32,000 bases of DNA from Thermodesulfobacteriota bacterium (lineage in GTDB: Bacteria; Desulfobacterota; WTBG01; JAGOGO01): NCBI GenBank assembly GCA_026625185.1, contig CP113000.1, positions 2,682,651-2,714,650 of the forward strand, in the 5' to 3' direction. Position 1 is the first letter of the stretch; each line of letters begins with the position of its first letter. The translations under genes and the position numbers were made by a program. Below the pieces are notes generated by a model. That model was not told the DNA's origin. It worked only from the letters and a program-made list of their open reading frames with translations, and ran no database searches. Shown here piece after piece: positions 14,953 through 27,920 of this stretch.

Positions 14953-16356
14953 ATGACCTATCGAAGATTGCTTGAGTCTATTCTCGCACATGCCTTGAGC
15001 TTTATTGAGAGCCTTGACGAAGGTCCCGTATCGGCAACCGCAAGTCTCGCTGACTTACGCCGACGTTTAGGCCACCCGCTTGCCGACAAGGGTATGGACG
15101 CAACTCATGTTATTGATGAATTAGTTGCTGATGTGAAAGGTGGGGTGTTAGGTACTTCAGGAGGACGGTTCTTCGGTTTTGTAGTCGGCGGCTCAGTGCC
15201 TGCCGCTCTCGCTGCTGATTGGCTTACGTCTACTTGGGACCAGCCCGCCGCTTTGTTCGCTTCCGGACCGGCAGTAGCCGTCATTGAAGAAATTTGTGGA
15301 CAATGAGTGAAAGAGCTGCTGAGTTTACCTCAGCAAGCAAGTTTTTCTCTGGTAACGGGTTGTTCAATGGCTCATGTGACCTGTCTTGCAGCTGCCCGAA
15401 ATGCTTTGTTGACCAAACATAGCTGGGATGTGGAGCGAAAGGGATTGAACGGCGCCCCTCCAATCCGCATCTTGAGTAATAACCAACGACACGGCTGGAT
15501 TGAGCGTACTGTCCGTTTATTGGGGATTGGTAACGACAACGTTTTTGATTCACCCGTAAATAAACAGGGGCATTTAGACTCAGAAGACCTACTGAGGGGA
15601 CTCCAAGAACATGCCGGCAAGCCAACCATCGTATTGTTACAGGCTGGCGAAATCAACACCGGGGTATTTGAGCCTTTTGAGGAGCTTATCCCAATCGCGC
15701 ACGAGCATGGTGCTTGGGTTCATATTGATGGGGCTTTTGGGCTATGGGCAGCGGCAAGCTCCAAATATAAACATTTGCTAAAGGGAGTAGATCAAGCCGA
15801 TTCGTGGATAGTTGATGGGCATAAATGGCTTAATGTGCCCTATGATTGCGGCTATGCCTTTGTTAAAGATTCAAGAGCTCCTCAAGCGGCCATGTCTCAC
15901 CGAGCGAGTTATTTAACCCACGATGCGGTTGCCCGTGACCAAATCGACTGGACTCCGGAATGGTCTCACCGTGGACGCGGCATCGCTACCTATGCCGCTA
16001 TCCGGCAACCAGGTAAACAGGGAGTGGCTGAACTAATCGAAAGCACTTGTCAATATGCGCATCGCCTGGTAACACGCATTAGTGCATTACCCTATGCTGA
16101 ATTGATTTGGGAACCACAAATAAACCAGGGGTTAGTACGTTTTCTCAGCGCGAAACTCAATTCGACGGATGCTGATCATGATCTGCGCACAGACAGCGTT
16201 ATTGCAAATGTTCTTGAATCCGGTGAAGCTTTTTTTTCTGGTACTACGTGGCAAGGTAAACGCTGTATGCGCGTTTCGGTGTGTAATTGGAAAACAAATG
16301 ATTTGGATGTTGAGGGAGCCATCAATGCCGTTCAACTTGCTTTATCAAAGCAGTAA
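14953..16356 (+). pseudogene. Group II PLP-dependent decarboxylase interrupted by one in-frame TGA (15304-15306)
   Basis: Track ORFs 14953..15306 and 15307..16356 are in the same frame and abut at a single TGA. The combined 467 codons match the family: GGRFFGFVVGGSVPAALAADWL, VTGCSMAHVTCLAAAR and the PLP lysine motif DGHKWLNVPYDCG. GC is visibly higher than in neighbouring genes. Confidence 0.8.
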
Positions 16357-21162: not shown

Positions 21163-22534
21163 GGGGTACAATTAAAAAGTGTGTAAATAGATAAAAAGGC
21201 GGTGTATCCTTTTAAATTGAGGCCAATCAACTATAAAGAATGGAGACACCCCCATGAAAAAAAGTATCACAGAGACGGCAAGGCCGTCAAGCGGGACATA
21301 TTAGGTATTGGAGGAAATGGTTCGGCTGAAGGTGCAGGAATACATTCAGGAAATTCTGGAGAACGAAGTTGAGGTCTTTTTGGGTAGGAAGAAATCTGAA
21401 CGGATCAAGCCCATCGATGGCACACCGGGGTATTGGAACGGACACGGGAATCGGAAGAAGTTCACCGTGATGAACGGAACCATCACCATTCGTCGTACAC
21501 GTGTAAGGGGGAGCGAAGAACGATTCAAGAGCACGGTAATTCCTTTTTTCAAGCGCCGGTCGAAAGAAGTGGGGCAGTTGCTGCCGGAGCTATATTTACA
21601 CGGGTTGGCCAAAGGGGATTTTGAGATGGCACTGGGGGTTTATTGGGATAGGGAGTGTCGCTGTCGGCTTCGGCGATAGAGCGGCTGAAGGCGAAGTGGC
21701 ATTTTGAGTATGAGGAGTGGAAGTGTTAGGATCTCTCATCTTTTGAGGTGGTCTATCAGTGGGCAGATGGTATTTATGTGAAAGCCGGGCTGGAAAAAGA
21801 CAAGGCTGCGCTTTTTTTAGTGATTATCGGGGCTCTCAGCAACGGAAGGAAAGTTTTTCTTGCCTGTGAGAGCGGATATCGGGAGAGCAAGGAATCCTGG
21901 AACGGAGTTCTGAGGGGACTGATAAATCGTGGCCTGAGGCTCGGCAGGTTAACGATTGCCGATGGTCATCTGGGAATATGGTCTGCGCTCGGAGAGCTTC
22001 ATGCTGAAGGAAAAGAGGAGCGGCGCTGGAATCATAAGATCAGGAATGTCCTTGACTGTTTTCCCAAGAGGCTGCGTTCCGAGGCGGCAGAAAAGCTCAA
22101 ACCGGTTCCCTATGCGGAAACGCTCGTGGAGTGTGAGCGTCGTCGGGATGCGTTCATTGGGCATTACCGGAAAGACTTTCCCAAGGCGACAGAGAAACTT
22201 CTCTCGGATTGAGACAGAATGATTACATTCTACTCATTCCCGAAGTAACACTGGCCGCACCTGCGGACAACGAATGTGGTTGAGTCCTCCTTCAGCTCGG
22301 TAAGACTGAGGACGGATGCAGCGAAGCGGTTCAAGAAGGTTCAAAATGCCACAGCAATGATCTGGAAACTGCTGCGGGTCGCGGAGAAGAACTTCCGTAC
22401 GTTAAAAGGTCATTGGTTGTTGCCTGACGTTCACGCAGAAAAAACGTTTGTCGATGGCGTCGCGAAACGGGAGTCAAAAGGACCGGAAAGGATGGCCGCC
22501 TAAATGCTTTTTACACACTTATTTAAAAGACCCC
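21163..22534 (+). mobile_element. Degenerate IS256-family insertion sequence (~1.37 kb) with imperfect terminal inverted repeats
   Basis: The left end is GGGGTACAATTAAAAAGTGTGTAAATAG. The reverse complement of the right end is GGGGTCTTTTAAATAAGTGTGTAAAAAG. They match at 21 of 30 positions, including the terminal GGGGT and an 11-nt core AAGTGTGTAAA. They enclose the broken transposase. I see no target-site duplication. Confidence 0.7.
21308..22503 (+). pseudogene. IS256-family (mutator-type) transposase pseudogene
   Basis: There are three track ORFs (21308..21679, 21748..22212, 22276..22503), plus my reading of the gaps. Family-typical segments are LPELYLHGLAKGDFEMAL, SASAIERLKAKW..EYEEW, VYQWADGIYVKAG, LVIIGA, ADGHLGIW, RRWNHKIRNVL and TTNVVESSFSSVR. 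They are interrupted by at least one frameshift (~21640) and several in-frame stops. Confidence 0.85.
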
Positions 22535-22713: not shown

Positions 22714-22854
22714 TAGAAAAAAGTATTAAATAGAGCGAACTTCTGCAAATCGGAAGAAACCGAGTTTTTTCAGTTGGTTAAGATTTAACACTTTGAAAAA
22801 TCAGAACCGTTTTGTTATGATCCTTTAATATTGAAAATAGAAAGGAGTTTTCTC

Positions 22855-24975
22855 ATGCTTTTTTCCCAACGTGTCTTTTGCGGACAAATTACTCCGGATG
22901 ATGTCGGACGCAAGGTGCTTCTTGGCGGCTGGGTGGATGCTTTTCGAGATCACGGGGGCTTGCTGTTCATCCATTTGCGCGATCGCAGCGGTATCATGCA
23001 GATTGTTTTCAGCCCGGAAGTGGCCTCGGCAGACCTCTGCCAGAGGGCAGCATCCTTACACGCCGAATATTGCATTGCGGTTACGGGTGAAGTCAAAAAG
23101 CGGCTCGCGGGTACGGAAAACCCCAACATAGAAACAGGAAATATTGAACTAATGGCCACTGAACTGACTGTGCTTTCTGAATCGGACACTCTTCCCTTTA
23201 CCGTTTCCGAAAAGGCTATGGTACCGGCCACGGTAGACAGAAGCGCAGACAAGGTGGCTGAGGATTTGCGTCTCCAGTACCGGTATCTGGACATCCGTCG
23301 TCCTTCTATGCGGGACAATCTAATGGCCCGACACCGCATCTTTCAGTGTGTTCGAGAATTTCTCGACTCAAAGGGCTTTCTGGAAATAGAAACCCCGGTG
23401 TTGACGTCAAGCACTCCTGAGGGGGCCCGGGATTATCTGGTACCCAGTCGCCTCCACCCGCATAATTTTTACGCCCTGCCCCAGTCCCCGCAGCTCTTCA
23501 AACAACTGCTGATGATCGGAGGAATGGAACGCTACTTTCAAATAGCACGCTGCTTCCGCGATGAAGATCTGCGGCCCAACCGACAGCCGGAATTTACTCA
23601 GCTTGATATTGAAGCCTCTTTCATTGATGAAGAATTTATATATGAACTGGTTGAAGAACTTACCGTCAAGATGTTCGCTGTCGTCGGCATTAAGCTTTCC
23701 AGACCTTTTGCTCGCATCACCTATGCAGACGCGATGGATACAACCGGTTCCGATCGTCCCGATTTGCGCTTCGGCCTGCGCTTTGTCGATGTGACGGATG
23801 TGTTTTATCAAACCAATTATTCGATCTTCCGACAGATTCTGCAGCGTGGTGGCTACATCAAGGGCATTAACATTAAAGGCCAGTCCGAGATGCTCAGCAA
23901 GAATGTACTGCAAAATGAATACGCCAAGGAAATCGCCCCTTCGTTTGGCGCCAAGGGTATGACCTGGATGCGCTCCGAAGGGGGGAAACTCGAATCCAAT
24001 ATCGTCCAGTTTTTCAGCAACCAGGAACTGGAAGCGTTACGTAAAAAATTCGACGTTGCCGACGGAGACGTCCTTATTATGATCGCCGATCCTTCGTATG
24101 CCATTGTAACATCGGCTCTCGGCCAGTTGCGCCTGCATTTGGCGAATCGTCTCAGTCTTATTCCCGCAAATAGCTTTTTTCCGGTCTGGATCACGGAGTT
24201 CCCGCTGTTTGAGGCTACCGATGAAGGAGCCGTCACATCCAGCCACCATCCCTTTACTGCGCCGGATCGGATCGATTTTGATCCTAAAAATATTGAAGAA
24301 CTGCTGATGCTGCGTTCACGTGCCTACGACTTAGTCATGAACGGCGAAGAACTGGGTGGCGGTAGCATCCGTATCAACGATCGCAACCTACAACGCAAAA
24401 TATTTGCAGCGCTTGGATTGACCGAAGAGGAAACAAGGGAAAAATTTGGCTTTTTTCTGCGGGCTTTCGATTTCGGAGCGCCTCCGCACGGCGGTTTGGC
24501 GCTGGGCATGGACCGCACCGTGTCGATGATTCTCCAAACTCCGTCTATCCGCGAGGTAATCGCGTTTCCCAAAAACCGTAGCGCCGCCTGTCCTCTGACC
24601 GGCGCGCCTTCTGCGGTTAAACGTGAACAACTGGCCGAGCTGAGGCTGTTGAATCTGGGCGCTCAGGATTTGTTGCTCGGAACAGCCCAAAAAGGAAATA
24701 GGATAGATCATTTGTCCTGGGTATCGCGCATTGGTATTTCAGCTAAGGAGCGTCCAGTAATGGAACAAATTCTTACCCAGGCCGAGGAACTGGTTTTGCT
24801 TGCCACCCAAAAGGCAGGCAAAGAAGAGCCCATCCGCAACGTCGCTCCGGTCACAAATCACACCCGCCCGGGGACGGAAGAAAAACGCTCAGCCCTCTCG
24901 CAAACAGGTCAACTACTTAAGAGCGCGCCCGCGGTTAAAGGCAATTACTATAAGGTCGCCAGCATTCTGGAATAA
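22855..24975 (+). CDS. aspS: Aspartyl-tRNA synthetase (bacterial type with GAD insertion) fused in frame to a C-terminal GatC-like domain
   Basis: ATG 22855 lies 7 nt after AAAGGAG; the track starts at TTG 22831. The OB anticodon domain is GWVDAFRDHGGLLFIHLRDRSG. Class II motifs are FLEIETPVLT, FRDEDLRPNRQPEFTQLDIE and GGLALGMDRTVSMIL. The ORF continues about 100 codons past the normal AspRS end into a GatC-like sequence. Confidence 0.9.
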   Translation: MLFSQRVFCGQITPDDVGRKVLLGGWVDAFRDHGGLLFIHLRDRSGIMQIVFSPEVASADLCQRAASLHAEYCIAVTGEVKKRLAGTENPNIETGNIELMATELTVLSESDTLPFTVSEKAMVPATVDRSADKVAEDLRLQYRYLDIRRPSMRDNLMARHRIFQCVREFLDSKGFLEIETPVLTSSTPEGARDYLVPSRLHPHNFYALPQSPQLFKQLLMIGGMERYFQIARCFRDEDLRPNRQPEFTQLDIEASFIDEEFIYELVEELTVKMFAVVGIKLSRPFARITYADAMDTTGSDRPDLRFGLRFVDVTDVFYQTNYSIFRQILQRGGYIKGINIKGQSEMLSKNVLQNEYAKEIAPSFGAKGMTWMRSEGGKLESNIVQFFSNQELEALRKKFDVADGDVLIMIADPSYAIVTSALGQLRLHLANRLSLIPANSFFPVWITEFPLFEATDEGAVTSSHHPFTAPDRIDFDPKNIEELLMLRSRAYDLVMNGEELGGGSIRINDRNLQRKIFAALGLTEEETREKFGFFLRAFDFGAPPHGGLALGMDRTVSMILQTPSIREVIAFPKNRSAACPLTGAPSAVKREQLAELRLLNLGAQDLLLGTAQKGNRIDHLSWVSRIGISAKERPVMEQILTQAEELVLLATQKAGKEEPIRNVAPVTNHTRPGTEEKRSALSQTGQLLKSAPAVKGNYYKVASILE
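24697..24972 (+). other. gatC: GatC-like domain (last 92 codons of the aspS ORF)
   Basis: NRIDHLSWVSRIGISAKERPVMEQILTQAEEL...LKSAPAVKGNYYKVASILE aligns by eye, without gaps at either end, to Bacillus GatC as I recall it ([36 protein letters not shown]...MKNAPDHKDGYIRVPSILD). No separate gatC ORF precedes the gatA-like gene. Confidence 0.8.
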
Positions 24976-24989
24976 AGGGAGAAATCTTC

Positions 24990-26189
24990 ATGGATTCAAT
25001 CTTTTTCTACCGCAATCTTGAAATCGTCGCTCCCAAGGACGGTCATTTACAAGGGGTGAAGATTGCGATTCAACCCAACATCTCAGTGGCGGGCTGGCCG
25101 ACAGAGGCCGGTTCAAAAGCACTCCTCAATTTTAAAGCGATAGAAGACGCAACCATTGTGCAGCGACTTCGTCAAGCTGGAGCCTTCGTGTGCGGCTCAA
25201 CCCACATGAGTGAATTCGGTTTCGGTCTGGCCGGCAGCAAGGCAGGCGAGGCGCTTCGGCGACAGGCAGCCGATGTTGAACTGGTTTTAGACTTGATGGG
25301 CGAGAGCCGTCTGGCTGCTTTGCATGCGGCGGCTTGCGGTTTCAAACCCAGTTACGGTTTGGTGTCGCAATTTGGTCTCATCGGATTGATTCCGTCAATG
25401 GAGTGTTGCGGCCTGCTATCCAGAAATTTGAAAAATATTCGTGAAATTTTGCAAACCATTGCCGGTCCGGATGAACTGGATTTTTCAATTCCCGATGAAG
25501 AGATCCCGAATTTTTCCCCGCAGGAAATTGACCCGCAAAAAACAACCATCGGTTTTATTACGGAACCGCAAAACGAATTGTCTAACGATAAGGAAGCAAT
25601 ATTTCGTTATTCTGTTGATGAACTTAAAAAAGCCGGCTTTTCCTTACGCGAAATGTCGCTGCCTGACTTTTCGCTTTTCTCTCTCGTCCATAAAATCGTG
25701 GGCTCCGTGGAGGCCTCATCCTGCGCCGGACGCTATGATTCGGTGCGTTACGGTCCGCGCGCACTGGGAACCAAAAACTGGAACGATATGTATCTTCTCT
25801 CGCGCGGCGCAGCCTTTGGGTTGCTCTTGAAAAGCTATCTGTTTCAAGGCGCATTTTTCCAGTTTGAAAACTACGGCGCGTATGAAAATGCCTGCCGAAT
25901 TCGTGCGCGTCTGCTCACGGATATGCAGTTGCTCCTTTCGCAGGCCGACTTTCTGGTTTTTCCGATAGATAACGGCGCCACCTCAGGAGCATCTGAGTTG
26001 CTTGCGGACACGTATAATCAATTCGCCTCAACCGTTTTTGCCAATGTTACTGGTCAGCCTGCATTGTACCTGCCGCCGGTGTCGGGGGCGGCGCATTTAG
26101 GATTTCAACTGGCGGGGCCGAGGCTTAGTGATGCACGGTTGCTTGCGGTTGGTGAATATCTTCTGAATATGCGCAACGGAGGTAAATAG
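24990..26189 (+). CDS. GatA-like amidase-signature protein, shortened and with degenerate catalytic motifs (probable pseudo-glutaminase)
   Basis: 399 aa against about 485 for GatA. It is collinear with GatA from the IKDNI region to the C-terminus (GFKPSYGLVSQFGL, SVEASSCAGRYDSVRYG, NVTGQPALYLP). However, IKDNI reads IQPNI, GGSSGGS reads AGSKAGE and DTGGSIR reads DLMGESR. About 18 residues before the Gly/Ser loop and the N-terminal ~65 residues are missing. The RBS AGGGAG is present. Confidence 0.75.
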   Translation: MDSIFFYRNLEIVAPKDGHLQGVKIAIQPNISVAGWPTEAGSKALLNFKAIEDATIVQRLRQAGAFVCGSTHMSEFGFGLAGSKAGEALRRQAADVELVLDLMGESRLAALHAAACGFKPSYGLVSQFGLIGLIPSMECCGLLSRNLKNIREILQTIAGPDELDFSIPDEEIPNFSPQEIDPQKTTIGFITEPQNELSNDKEAIFRYSVDELKKAGFSLREMSLPDFSLFSLVHKIVGSVEASSCAGRYDSVRYGPRALGTKNWNDMYLLSRGAAFGLLLKSYLFQGAFFQFENYGAYENACRIRARLLTDMQLLLSQADFLVFPIDNGATSGASELLADTYNQFASTVFANVTGQPALYLPPVSGAAHLGFQLAGPRLSDARLLAVGEYLLNMRNGGK

Positions 26190-26191
26190 TT

Positions 26192-27628
26192 ATGGAATTT
26201 GAAGCGGTCATAGGATTAGAAATTCATGTCGAACTCAATTGCACCACTAAGATGTTTTGCGATTGTCCCAACCGTCCCGGCGACGACCCCAATGTCAATA
26301 CCTGTCCGACTTGCCTGTGGTTTCCGGGCGCTATGCCCCGATTTAGTCAGGAGGCACTTGAGAAGGCATCGATTTTATGTCTGGGGCTGAGCGCCGAACT
26401 TCAGCCCTTGAGCGCCTTCGACCAGAAGGTTTATTACTATCCGGATCTGCCGAAGGGCTTTCAATTATCGCAAGCCCATTTTCCCCTTGCGTGCGGCGGC
26501 GGAATCGACATTACAAACGAAGACGGTAAAACCAAAAGACTCCGCCTTCATCATATCCACATGGAAGAAGACGTCGCCAAACTTGTGCATGAAATGGAAG
26601 GACGCTTGCCGATCAGCCTGGTGGACTTCAACCGTGCCGGCTCGCCGCTGGTGGAAATAGTCACAGAGCCGGATTTCCGAACGCCCTATGAGGCTATGGA
26701 ATTTCTAAAGGCGCTACGCACGCAGGTCCGTTATGTAGGGTCCTCTGAGTGCAGCATGGAAAACGGGACGATGCGCGTCGACGCCAATATTTCCATACGC
26801 CCCAGTGGCACCAATCAGATGAACACCAAGGTTGAAGTAAAAAACATGAATTCCATCCGTCACGTTGGTGACGCCATCGCCCACGAAATCAGCCGCCAAA
26901 GCGCATGCATGCAAGCGGGTGAAACGATTATTCTGCATACACGCCTTTGGGACCCGGACAAAAAACTCACGCTCCCGATGCGCACCAAGTTTGAAGGCCC
27001 TTGTGTTCCCGATCCCAAAGTTCCGGTTATTAAATTATCACCCGACTGGATCGAAAAGATGCGTTCGCGTCTTCCGGAAATGCCCGCCGCAAGGGCAGAG
27101 CGCTTTGTCAAACAGCACGGACTGACTGATGAGGAAGCAAACTTTTTGAGTTCTGATCCGGAAGTCGCAAGGTTCTTTGAGGCGCTGATTGGCCAAGGAA
27201 TCGCGCCGCGCACAGCCATGCATTGGCTCATCACGCAGTTGATCCCGGCTGTTAAAGACCGGCAGCTGGACCTGAGCAGCTCACCTGTTACCCCAGCACG
27301 CTTCGCCAGTCTGCTTAGAATGCTTTCGCAGGACGAGATCAACGCCAATGCAGCGCGCGAGGTGCTTGTGTACCTGTTTGATAGTGACGAATCCCCGAAA
27401 AAAATCGTTGTTGCTCGTGGATTTCAGCAGGTTTCTGATCCCAAGGCTCTCGATGGGTTGATCGACAAGGTGCTAACAGCTCAACCGGAGACTGTAGCCA
27501 AGGTCCGGGGCGGCCAGGATAAAGCCATGGGCTTTCTAATCGGCCAGGTTATGAAAGCAGCAGGCGGTAAAGCCAATCCGAAAATAATACGGGAATTGCT
27601 TGTCAAAAAATTAAGCGAAATTTTATAG
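26192..27628 (+). CDS. gatB: Asp/Glu-tRNA amidotransferase subunit B
   Basis: 478 aa, starting 2 nt after the gatA-like stop. It has VIGLEIHVEL, FDQKVYYYPDLPKGFQLSQ, HIHMEEDVAKL, VDFNRAGSPLVEIVTEPD, MENGTMRVDANIS, VEVKNMNS and a C-terminal YqeY-like tail (GFLIGQVMKAAGGKANP). It is divergent but full length. Confidence 0.9.
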   Translation: MEFEAVIGLEIHVELNCTTKMFCDCPNRPGDDPNVNTCPTCLWFPGAMPRFSQEALEKASILCLGLSAELQPLSAFDQKVYYYPDLPKGFQLSQAHFPLACGGGIDITNEDGKTKRLRLHHIHMEEDVAKLVHEMEGRLPISLVDFNRAGSPLVEIVTEPDFRTPYEAMEFLKALRTQVRYVGSSECSMENGTMRVDANISIRPSGTNQMNTKVEVKNMNSIRHVGDAIAHEISRQSACMQAGETIILHTRLWDPDKKLTLPMRTKFEGPCVPDPKVPVIKLSPDWIEKMRSRLPEMPAARAERFVKQHGLTDEEANFLSSDPEVARFFEALIGQGIAPRTAMHWLITQLIPAVKDRQLDLSSSPVTPARFASLLRMLSQDEINANAAREVLVYLFDSDESPKKIVVARGFQQVSDPKALDGLIDKVLTAQPETVAKVRGGQDKAMGFLIGQVMKAAGGKANPKIIRELLVKKLSEIL

Positions 27629-27834: not shown

Positions 27835-27846
27835 GATTTTATTAAG

Positions 27847-27920
27847 TAGCGGGGTCTGGATTTGAACCAGAGACCTTTGGGTTATGAGCCCAACGAGCTT
27901 CCAGACTGCTCCACCCCGCA
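27847..27920 (-). tRNA. Initiator tRNA-Met (anticodon CAT)
   Basis: The hand-folded cloverleaf is TGCGGGG-TG-GAGC-AGTCTGGAA-GCTC-G-TTGGG-CTCATAA-CCCAA-AGGTC-TCTGG-TTCAAAT-CCAGA-CCCCGCT-A. Initiator hallmarks are three G:C pairs closing the anticodon stem, A11:U24 and an unpaired 1:72 position. The CCA is not encoded. Confidence 0.9.

Follow-up and report, generated by a model that had tools for sequence, protein, structure and literature searches.

Natural fusion of aspartyl-tRNA synthetase with a divergent GatC domain, and the GatA-derived protein encoded beside it, in a Thermodesulfobacteriota bacterium

We consider a three-gene operon in a stretch of 32,000 nucleotides from a Thermodesulfobacteriota bacterium (NCBI GenBank assembly GCA_026625185.1, contig CP113000.1, positions 2,682,651 to 2,714,650 of the forward strand), which we call the window and number from its first letter. 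The first gene, aspS-gatC, encodes an aspartyl-tRNA synthetase (AspRS) whose reading frame runs on into a C-terminal tail. Comparison of sequences and profiles identifies this tail as a divergent GatC homologue, fused in frame to a complete AspRS. The second gene encodes a GatA-derived protein, here called GatA', in which residues that serve the glutaminase of an ordinary GatA have been replaced, and the third encodes a canonical GatB. The features of the operon, each with the evidence on which it is placed, are the following.

The fusion gene and its occurrence

22855..24975, forward strand: aspS-gatC fusion gene (open reading frame list; 706 amino acids from the ATG start, 714 from an alternative TTG start at 22831)
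22915..23175, forward strand: AspRS anticodon-binding OB fold with the motif RDHGG (Pfam PF01336; alignment to 4wj3_M, which has RDHGG, and 1efw_A, which has RDLGG)
23260..24579, forward strand: class II AspRS catalytic core (Pfam PF00152, E = 8.6e-117)
23827-24117, forward strand: GAD insertion inside the AspRS core (Pfam PF02938)
24649..24696, forward strand: linker of some 16 residues, NLGAQDLLLGTAQKG, which separates the AspRS match from the GatC match (tail alignments)
24697..24972, forward strand: divergent GatC domain of 92 amino acids with conserved SWVSRIG and LLKSAPAVKGNYFKVASILE motifs (hhalign, tail profile, tail match to NF009460)
24976..24981, forward strand: Shine-Dalgarno sequence AGGGAG for gatA', 8 nt before its ATG (read from the sequence)
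24990..26189, forward strand: gatA', GatA-derived, 399 amino acids (TIGR00132, PDB alignments, a survey of 63 sequences, structure prediction and Foldseek)
26192..27628, forward strand: gatB, canonical, 478 amino acids (NF004012, 559.5 bits against a cut-off of 338; Pfam PF02934, GatB_N, and PF02637, GatB_Yqey)

The reading frame of aspS-gatC closes with TAA (24973-24975), and its 706-residue product from the ATG start is identical to the GenBank protein WAC07102.1. The AspRS part is a complete bacterial-type AspRS with OB fold, class II core and GAD domain. It scores 754.3 bits against the aspartate--tRNA ligase model NF001750 (cut-off 443) and 690.7 bits against TIGR00459 (cut-off 373.85), it aligns to 4wj3_M in the PDB with E = 1e-153, and the class II motifs FRDED and GGLALGMDR are intact when it is aligned to the solved AspRS structures (1efw and 4wj3_M). 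The match to the solved structures stops at about residue 598 ('...AELRLL'). The linker follows, kept as LPGTAEK in the protein alignments of relatives, and then the codons of the tail. By the open reading frame and the structure alignments, the end of the AspRS core, the linker and the 92 in-frame codons lie exactly where the initial annotation had put them. The next gene, which it had placed 14 nt after the stop codon, does begin there, with the ATG at 24990 that can be read directly from the sequence; gatB in turn begins two bases past the end of gatA'.

How widely is this arrangement found? A genome scan with one genome per species gave 68 loci (referred to by L numbers where they need to be told apart). 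AspRS and tail form a single stop-free frame in 52 of the 68, aligning end to end to the window protein with 64-87% identity, and in those 52 loci the full-length fusion is followed by gatA' and gatB. Of the remaining loci, most run off the end of their contig, two (L031 and L048) contain frameshifts, and L068, from Saccharibacteria, is an ordinary gatCAB that serves as outgroup. The frameshifts split all three operon genes in L048 and the fusion gene only in L031; the breaks in L048 look like assembly indel errors and not like real pseudogenes. The carriers are mainly Smithella, Syntrophus, other Syntrophaceae, Syntrophobacteraceae and Desulforhabdus, and a complete isolate genome, that of S. 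buswellii DM-2 (L017), is among them. Fusion operons are also present on contigs binned as Dehalococcoidia, Chloroflexota, Acidobacteria, Verrucomicrobia, Pirellulaceae and Anammoximicrobium (L002, L004, L005, L007, L018, L019, L023, L027 and L033). The operons on these contigs have 79-85% identity to the Smithella/Syntrophus type, and mis-binning or recent horizontal transfer is suggested for them.

The fusion architecture as such is not new, as it is already catalogued. The NCBIfam model NF009460 (PRK12820), named 'bifunctional aspartyl-tRNA synthetase/aspartyl/glutamyl-tRNA amidotransferase subunit C', covers the protein end to end: residues 5-714 of the 714-residue form align to positions 14-723 of the 723 in the model (E = 0), and when only the tail is compared it aligns to positions 623-723 (E = 7.2e-31). 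The model describes the same AspRS and GatC architecture as that of the window protein, while its name is silent on the partner GatA'. The window protein scores 1321.8 bits, below the equivalog cut-off of 1379, and four other clear fusions, including those of S. buswellii, Desulforhabdus and a Smithella metagenome-assembled genome, score 1297.5-1315.9 bits and are also below it. The cut-off leaves out every fusion that we tested (1297-1322 bits; the window, L017, L025 and L055). It therefore shuts out most of the clade, and the only model to name this architecture seldom fires, although the architecture itself is beyond doubt. It is because the fusions miss this cut-off that GenBank gives the protein the plain name 'aspartate--tRNA ligase'. 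A full-text search of the literature turned up neither a paper on an AspRS-GatC fusion nor one on a GatA that is catalytically dead, and in a 2008 review of tRNA-dependent amino-acid synthesis fusions are unmentioned (PMC2330236).

All parts of the operon are under purifying selection. The ratio of nonsynonymous to synonymous substitution rates (dN/dS, by the method of Nei and Gojobori in 11 close pairs) is 0.05-0.17 for the whole fusion, 0.14-0.34 for the tail alone, 0.16-0.32 for GatA' and 0.06-0.20 for GatB. These values bear on the suspicion that the read-through from aspS into gatC is an artefact of assembly or sequencing and that the two genes are truly separate. Nothing beyond its prior probability speaks for such an artefact, though L031 and L048 do have frameshifts. 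It is opposed by the same single frame in 52 independent assemblies, with the complete isolate genome of S. buswellii DM-2 among them, by a linker that is conserved in protein, by the selection acting on the tail, by the lack of a conserved start codon at the GatC part, and by a curated NCBI model that describes the fusion. We find an artefact hardly credible. The sequencing error that the initial annotation had kept in mind, one removing the aspS stop, is excluded by the 52 stop-free loci together with the dN/dS of the tail, and homologues do share the fusion.

A free GatC made by internal initiation within the fusion gene was considered and ruled out. In 40 of 65 loci the codon before SWVSRIG is not a start codon (GTC, CTC or CTT for the most part), and a sequence resembling a Shine-Dalgarno site is present in just 22 of the 65. 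A separately initiated GatC is unlikely because the start codon at the GatC part is not conserved.

The tail compared with GatC

The question is whether a tail of this degree of divergence can be called GatC. Several results weigh against doing so. The window tail gives 17.7 bits on the Pfam GatC family (PF02686), under the gathering score of 23, and 15.2 bits on TIGR00135, under the cut-off of 47.1. Searches of the PDB with the tail sequence and with a tail profile return nothing significant, the GatC chain 4wj3_C appearing at E = 0.46 amid coiled-coil noise. The AlphaFold2 (AF2) model of the tail alone has a predicted local distance difference test score (pLDDT) of 56, a low confidence, and was not used for a fold search. 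Such results are what one might expect if the tail were a C-terminal extension with no relation to GatC, such as a helical appendage serving dimerisation or tRNA binding, and in the PDB profile search coiled-coil and other helical proteins do score level with 4wj3_C. As to the AF2 model, a poor prediction is expected because a GatC-type subunit folds only around its partners.

Because the PDB sequence and profile searches are not significant, the case for homology is made by profile-profile comparison and by the search of a large library. As a reference set we take five GatC sequences from the PDB (2df4_C, 3h0l_C, 3al0_C, 4wj3_C and 3kfu_G). Comparing the tail alignment with this set, hhalign gives a probability of 95.4% and E = 1.8e-8 over 86 aligned columns, and the register is full-length and colinear, tail residues 12-103 corresponding to GatC residues 7-96. 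A HMMER profile of the tail, searched against 1.84 billion representative proteins, recovers two standalone proteins, P0191 (96 amino acids, E = 2.5e-6) and P0194 (101 amino acids, E = 7.4e-5); with Pfam GatC scores of 58.5 and 66.8 bits, both are bona fide GatC. In Pfam itself GatC is the sole family matched by the window tail, and the match is colinear across the whole model. GatC is likewise the only Pfam match of all ten complete metagenome tails (10/10; best E = 1.1e-4, every one below the gathering score), and one divergent tail, P0170, passes the gathering score with 23.2 bits.

The gene order agrees with this assignment. The initial annotation had remarked that the gene after the tail starts where gatA follows gatC in ordinary operons, and the tail does occupy the gatC slot of the gatCAB order, directly upstream of gatA', which is followed by gatB; some 62 loci are alike in this respect. 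Its alignment of both ends of the tail to GatC, made by eye, agrees with the hhalign register. A GatC profile match of the tail is upheld in part: the profile-profile comparison and the recovery of P0191 and P0194 support it, and the Pfam and TIGR00135 cut-offs are not reached. With the full-length colinear match, the canonical GatC proteins found across the library, the tail above the gathering score and the order gatC-gatA-gatB all set against it, an extension unrelated to GatC is, in our judgement, very improbable.

GatA' and the surroundings of the operon

We turn our attention to the second gene. GatA' is identical to WAC07103.1, deposited as 'amidase family protein'. Its best family is TIGR00132, at 215.8 bits, where the cut-off of 481.1 is not reached, and its best sequence matches in the PDB are all GatA, with 3h0l_A at the top (E = 1.7e-42). 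The AF2 model of GatA' has a predicted template-modelling score (pTM) of 0.75. The top Foldseek matches of this model are 3kfu_H, 3h0l_A, 4wj3_A and 2df4_A, with E values from 1.8e-15 to 2.4e-18 and TMq of 0.65-0.69 (for 3kfu_H, E = 2.4e-18 and TMq 0.69). As far as the predicted structure shows, GatA' keeps the amidase fold and is nearest to GatA among the amidases.

GatA' departs from canonical GatA in what is missing and in what stands at the active site. The first 55 or so residues of canonical GatA are missing, and so are some 22 residues in a block running up to, or lying within, the GGSSGGS signature; this block is absent from all 63 GatA' sequences. The catalytic triad of GatA is Ser-cisSer-Lys (Lys79, Ser154 and Ser178 in Staphylococcus aureus), with Ser178 as the nucleophile (PMC2330236). 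When residues 15-80 of GatA' are aligned to residues 66-131 of the S. aureus structure (2df4_A), the Lys79 position is occupied by Gln28 (25071-25073), which is Gln in 61 of the 63 sequences. The position of the nucleophile Ser178 is occupied by Glu105 (25302-25304), which is Glu in 63/63, and the register here, 'DLMGESR' against 'DTGGS(I/V)R', is identical in five GatA alignments and in a MAFFT alignment. Asp101, Gly104 and Arg107 are also invariant (63/63). We considered Ser106 as a retained nucleophile and ruled it out; by the five GatA structures it aligns to Ile, and it is Glu105 that stands at the nucleophile position.

The third member of the triad is harder to place. The region of cis-Ser154 is deleted or ambiguous. 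The alignments disagree at GGSSGGS, where 'GSKAGE' (residues 82-87) may be a remnant, and Ser83, which is Ser in 47/63 sequences and Asp, Asn or Glu in 16/63, is possibly what is left of cis-Ser154; this ambiguity is a point against the reading of the operon that we favour below. With the catalytic Lys and the nucleophile Ser lost, GatA' cannot be a glutaminase by the amidase-signature mechanism. On the alignments, then, GatA' is without the glutaminase catalytic residues in every relative examined. It is most likely a structural partner and not a glutamine hydrolase of the amidase-signature kind.

GatA' is not a decaying gene, as its dN/dS and the size of its family make clear: the family has 750 or more clusters at 90% identity, and the proteins are almost all about 399 amino acids long. 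Every locus with a fused GatC has GatA', and no canonical gatA lies within 6 kb of the fusion in any of the roughly 62 loci. For us the less expected point is this glutaminase-dead GatA' that always accompanies the fusion, of which we found no description in the literature searched.

Around the operon we looked for further parts of the system. No fourth gene (a separate glutaminase, for instance) is conserved next to the operon in the 68 loci, the window has none either, and neither a tRNA(Asn) gene nor an RNA leader is present near the operon, where there are no Rfam matches. Two other features border on it.

22793..22821, forward strand: candidate sigma-70-like promoter upstream of the operon, TTGAAA-17-TATGAT with TG (a weak match, from a consensus scan only)
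27846-27920, reverse strand: tRNA-Met (CAT) gene, between gatB and a convergent phosphoglycerate mutase gene

A terminator-like hairpin (27834-27807) goes with the tRNA-Met (CAT) gene. Directly upstream of the operon lies a degraded insertion sequence with a transposase of the Mutator family (21308-22503, forward strand), in three fragments (21308-21679, 21748-22212 and 22276-22503). Elsewhere in the window, a reading frame for a pyridoxal phosphate-dependent group II decarboxylase (14953-16356, forward strand) contains a single in-frame TGA (15304-15306, '...EEICGQ*VKELL...'), for which a nonsense mutation, a pseudogene or an error in sequencing is the probable explanation.

A proposed tethered transamidosome and its possible source of nitrogen

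The fused AspRS carries RDHGG and '...GtENPN' with the loop Gly, as does the non-discriminating (ND) AspRS of Pseudomonas aeruginosa (4wj3_M), and the D-type AspRS1 of Thermus thermophilus has RDLGG. From mutagenesis work, we take the His of RDHGG and the Gly of the L1 loop to mark relaxed tRNA specificity, and we use them as a hint only. Some genomes contain a second AspRS with which to compare. In two loci of the Smithella type an ordinary AspRS of 590 amino acids, in a hisS-aspS pair, lies directly upstream of the fusion (L025:2134-3906 and L040:1324-3096). It has 46% identity to the fused AspRS, its orthologues are common in Smithellaceae, and one further genome has the standalone AspRS in hisS-aspS with no fusion adjoining. 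Since L025 and L040 carry both, at least part of the clade keeps a housekeeping AspRS beside the fused paralogue. Some organisms keep two AspRS, one of which serves tRNA-dependent asparagine synthesis. The presence of two AspRS in one genome fits the fused gene as a dedicated, specialised paralogue. A point on the other side is that the standalone AspRS of L025 and L040 also has RDHGG, and the loop Gly with it, so that this motif does not separate the paralogues.

Taking the three genes together, we think it likely that aspS-gatC, gatA' and gatB form one operon for a covalently tethered Asn-transamidosome. The AspRS part, with its ND-like sequence features, would charge tRNA(Asn) with aspartate, a step that we infer from those features. 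The C-terminal GatC domain, on its linker of about 16 residues, would act as a belt in the manner of free GatC, enabling the A and B subunits to fold and to come together; GatC is required for the folding of GatA and for the association of GatA with GatB (PMC2330236). The fusion would in this way nucleate a GatA'-GatB pair on each AspRS protomer. With one amidotransferase per protomer, and AspRS being a dimer, the complex would be 2:2:2, and this permanent machine would amount to an asparaginyl-tRNA synthetase in cis. A fixed 1:1 ratio of synthetase to amidotransferase, which the initial annotation had proposed, is reasonable to expect. That the complex forms, and that it channels Asp-tRNA(Asn), we infer from the fusion and the operon only.

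This predicted machine can be set beside known systems. The Asn-transamidosomes of P. aeruginosa (PDB: 4WJ3) and T. thermophilus (PDB: 3KFU) have the same protein parts, ND-AspRS and GatCAB, with tRNA(Asn), and the same presumed channelling of Asp-tRNA(Asn). Those complexes are non-covalent, and the assembly of the T. thermophilus one needs tRNA(Asn) (PMC2330236); in the window system, which is known here from its genes, GatC is inside the AspRS polypeptide. The GatA of 4WJ3 and 3KFU is an active glutaminase, whereas GatA' is without equivalents of Lys79 and Ser178. A GatC tethered to a non-discriminating synthetase is also seen in the crystal of the Gln-transamidosome of Thermotoga maritima, in which chain C of 3AL0 is 'GatC, Linker, Glutamate--tRNA ligase 2'. 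That chain is artificial, with GatC at the N-terminus of a class I GluRS, whereas the fusion in the window is natural and has GatC at the C-terminus of a class II AspRS. Another natural fusion of a synthetase with an amidotransferase module is the GlnRS of Deinococcus radiodurans with its C-terminal YqeY/GatB-tail domain. That module is a tRNA-binding one on a GlnRS and recruits no amidotransferase (PMC1865053), whereas here it is the GatC belt that is joined to AspRS. Lineage-specific remodelling of the small belt subunit is also known from the yeast mitochondrial GatFAB (PDB: 4N0H and 4N0I). There, GatF replaces GatC as a separate polypeptide and GatA is active (PMC4027206), whereas in the window GatC is fused and GatA' is without catalytic residues.

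Because glutamine cannot yield its ammonia to GatA', some other source must supply the nitrogen. The most economical guess for the donor is free ammonia or ammonium, entering via the remodelled former active site of GatA', and we put forward this route for ammonium tentatively. A bolder reading of the system as a whole, possible in our view and still short of probable, is that in the Syntrophales and Syntrophobacterales Asn-tRNA(Asn) is made by one covalent, glutamine-independent machine, composed of AspRS-GatC, GatB and the glutaminase-dead GatA' as sole A subunit, in which the invariant Gln28, Asp101, Glu105 and Arg107 would admit or capture ammonium for the tunnel.

The main rival to ammonium as the donor is a canonical GatA whose gene lies elsewhere in the genome. 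The synthetase would then still be tethered and the amidation would still depend on glutamine, the canonical GatA binding the fused GatC and GatB, with GatA' in an accessory or regulatory role, as a competitor or an assembly factor. Weighing for it and against a glutamine-independent machine, a canonical gatA and/or gatC elsewhere may supply the glutaminase, as our survey covered loci and not whole genomes; the GatCAB enzymes characterised so far all use a glutaminase subunit (PMC2330236); and GatA' evolves somewhat faster than GatB, as the dN/dS ranges given above indicate. Against it, GatA' occupies the gatA slot beside fused gatC and gatB in each of the approximately 62 loci with no canonical gatA nearby, and its family is large and under purifying selection. 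On balance we regard a second, canonical GatA as rather unlikely.

The replaced positions themselves raise one more alternative. Glu105 and Gln28, invariant or nearly so, and the invariant Asp101, Gly104 and Arg107 show no drift, and the constancy of Gln28 and Glu105 points to more than an inert scaffold, namely to a function newly acquired where the active site used to be, which counts against GatA' being a structural partner alone. In its stronger form, Gln28, Asp101, Glu105 and Arg107 would form a new catalytic or ligand site, for the capture of ammonium or for another nitrogen donor, and the operon might make another product in place of Asn-tRNA(Asn), or besides it. GatB and AspRS, by contrast, look entirely canonical and give no hint of another substrate. 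Capture of ammonium at this site is compatible with the tethered transamidosome that we favour and is no real rival of it. A GatA' with such a new function is, we believe, quite unlikely.

Transamidosomes are the accepted way in which cells keep mischarged Asp-tRNA(Asn) from translation, and the known ones are non-covalent and some of them transient. A natural AspRS-GatC fusion may be viewed as evolution's "AsnRS made in cis", and would give structural and kinetic studies a stable complex to work on. There is also a consequence for annotation: pathway reconstructions of syntrophic Thermodesulfobacteriota will miss GatC and mis-score GatA, since the names under which most members are deposited are aspartate--tRNA ligase and 'amidase family protein'. 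The clade-wide loss of the GatA catalytic residues asks whether tRNA-dependent amidation can proceed without a glutaminase, and with nitrogen from what source. Should the machine prove to be glutamine-independent, it would be the first natural ammonia-dependent tRNA-dependent amidotransferase, and it would save the ATP of glutamine synthetase for each amide made, in organisms that live near the thermodynamic limit in ammonium-rich anaerobic habitats.

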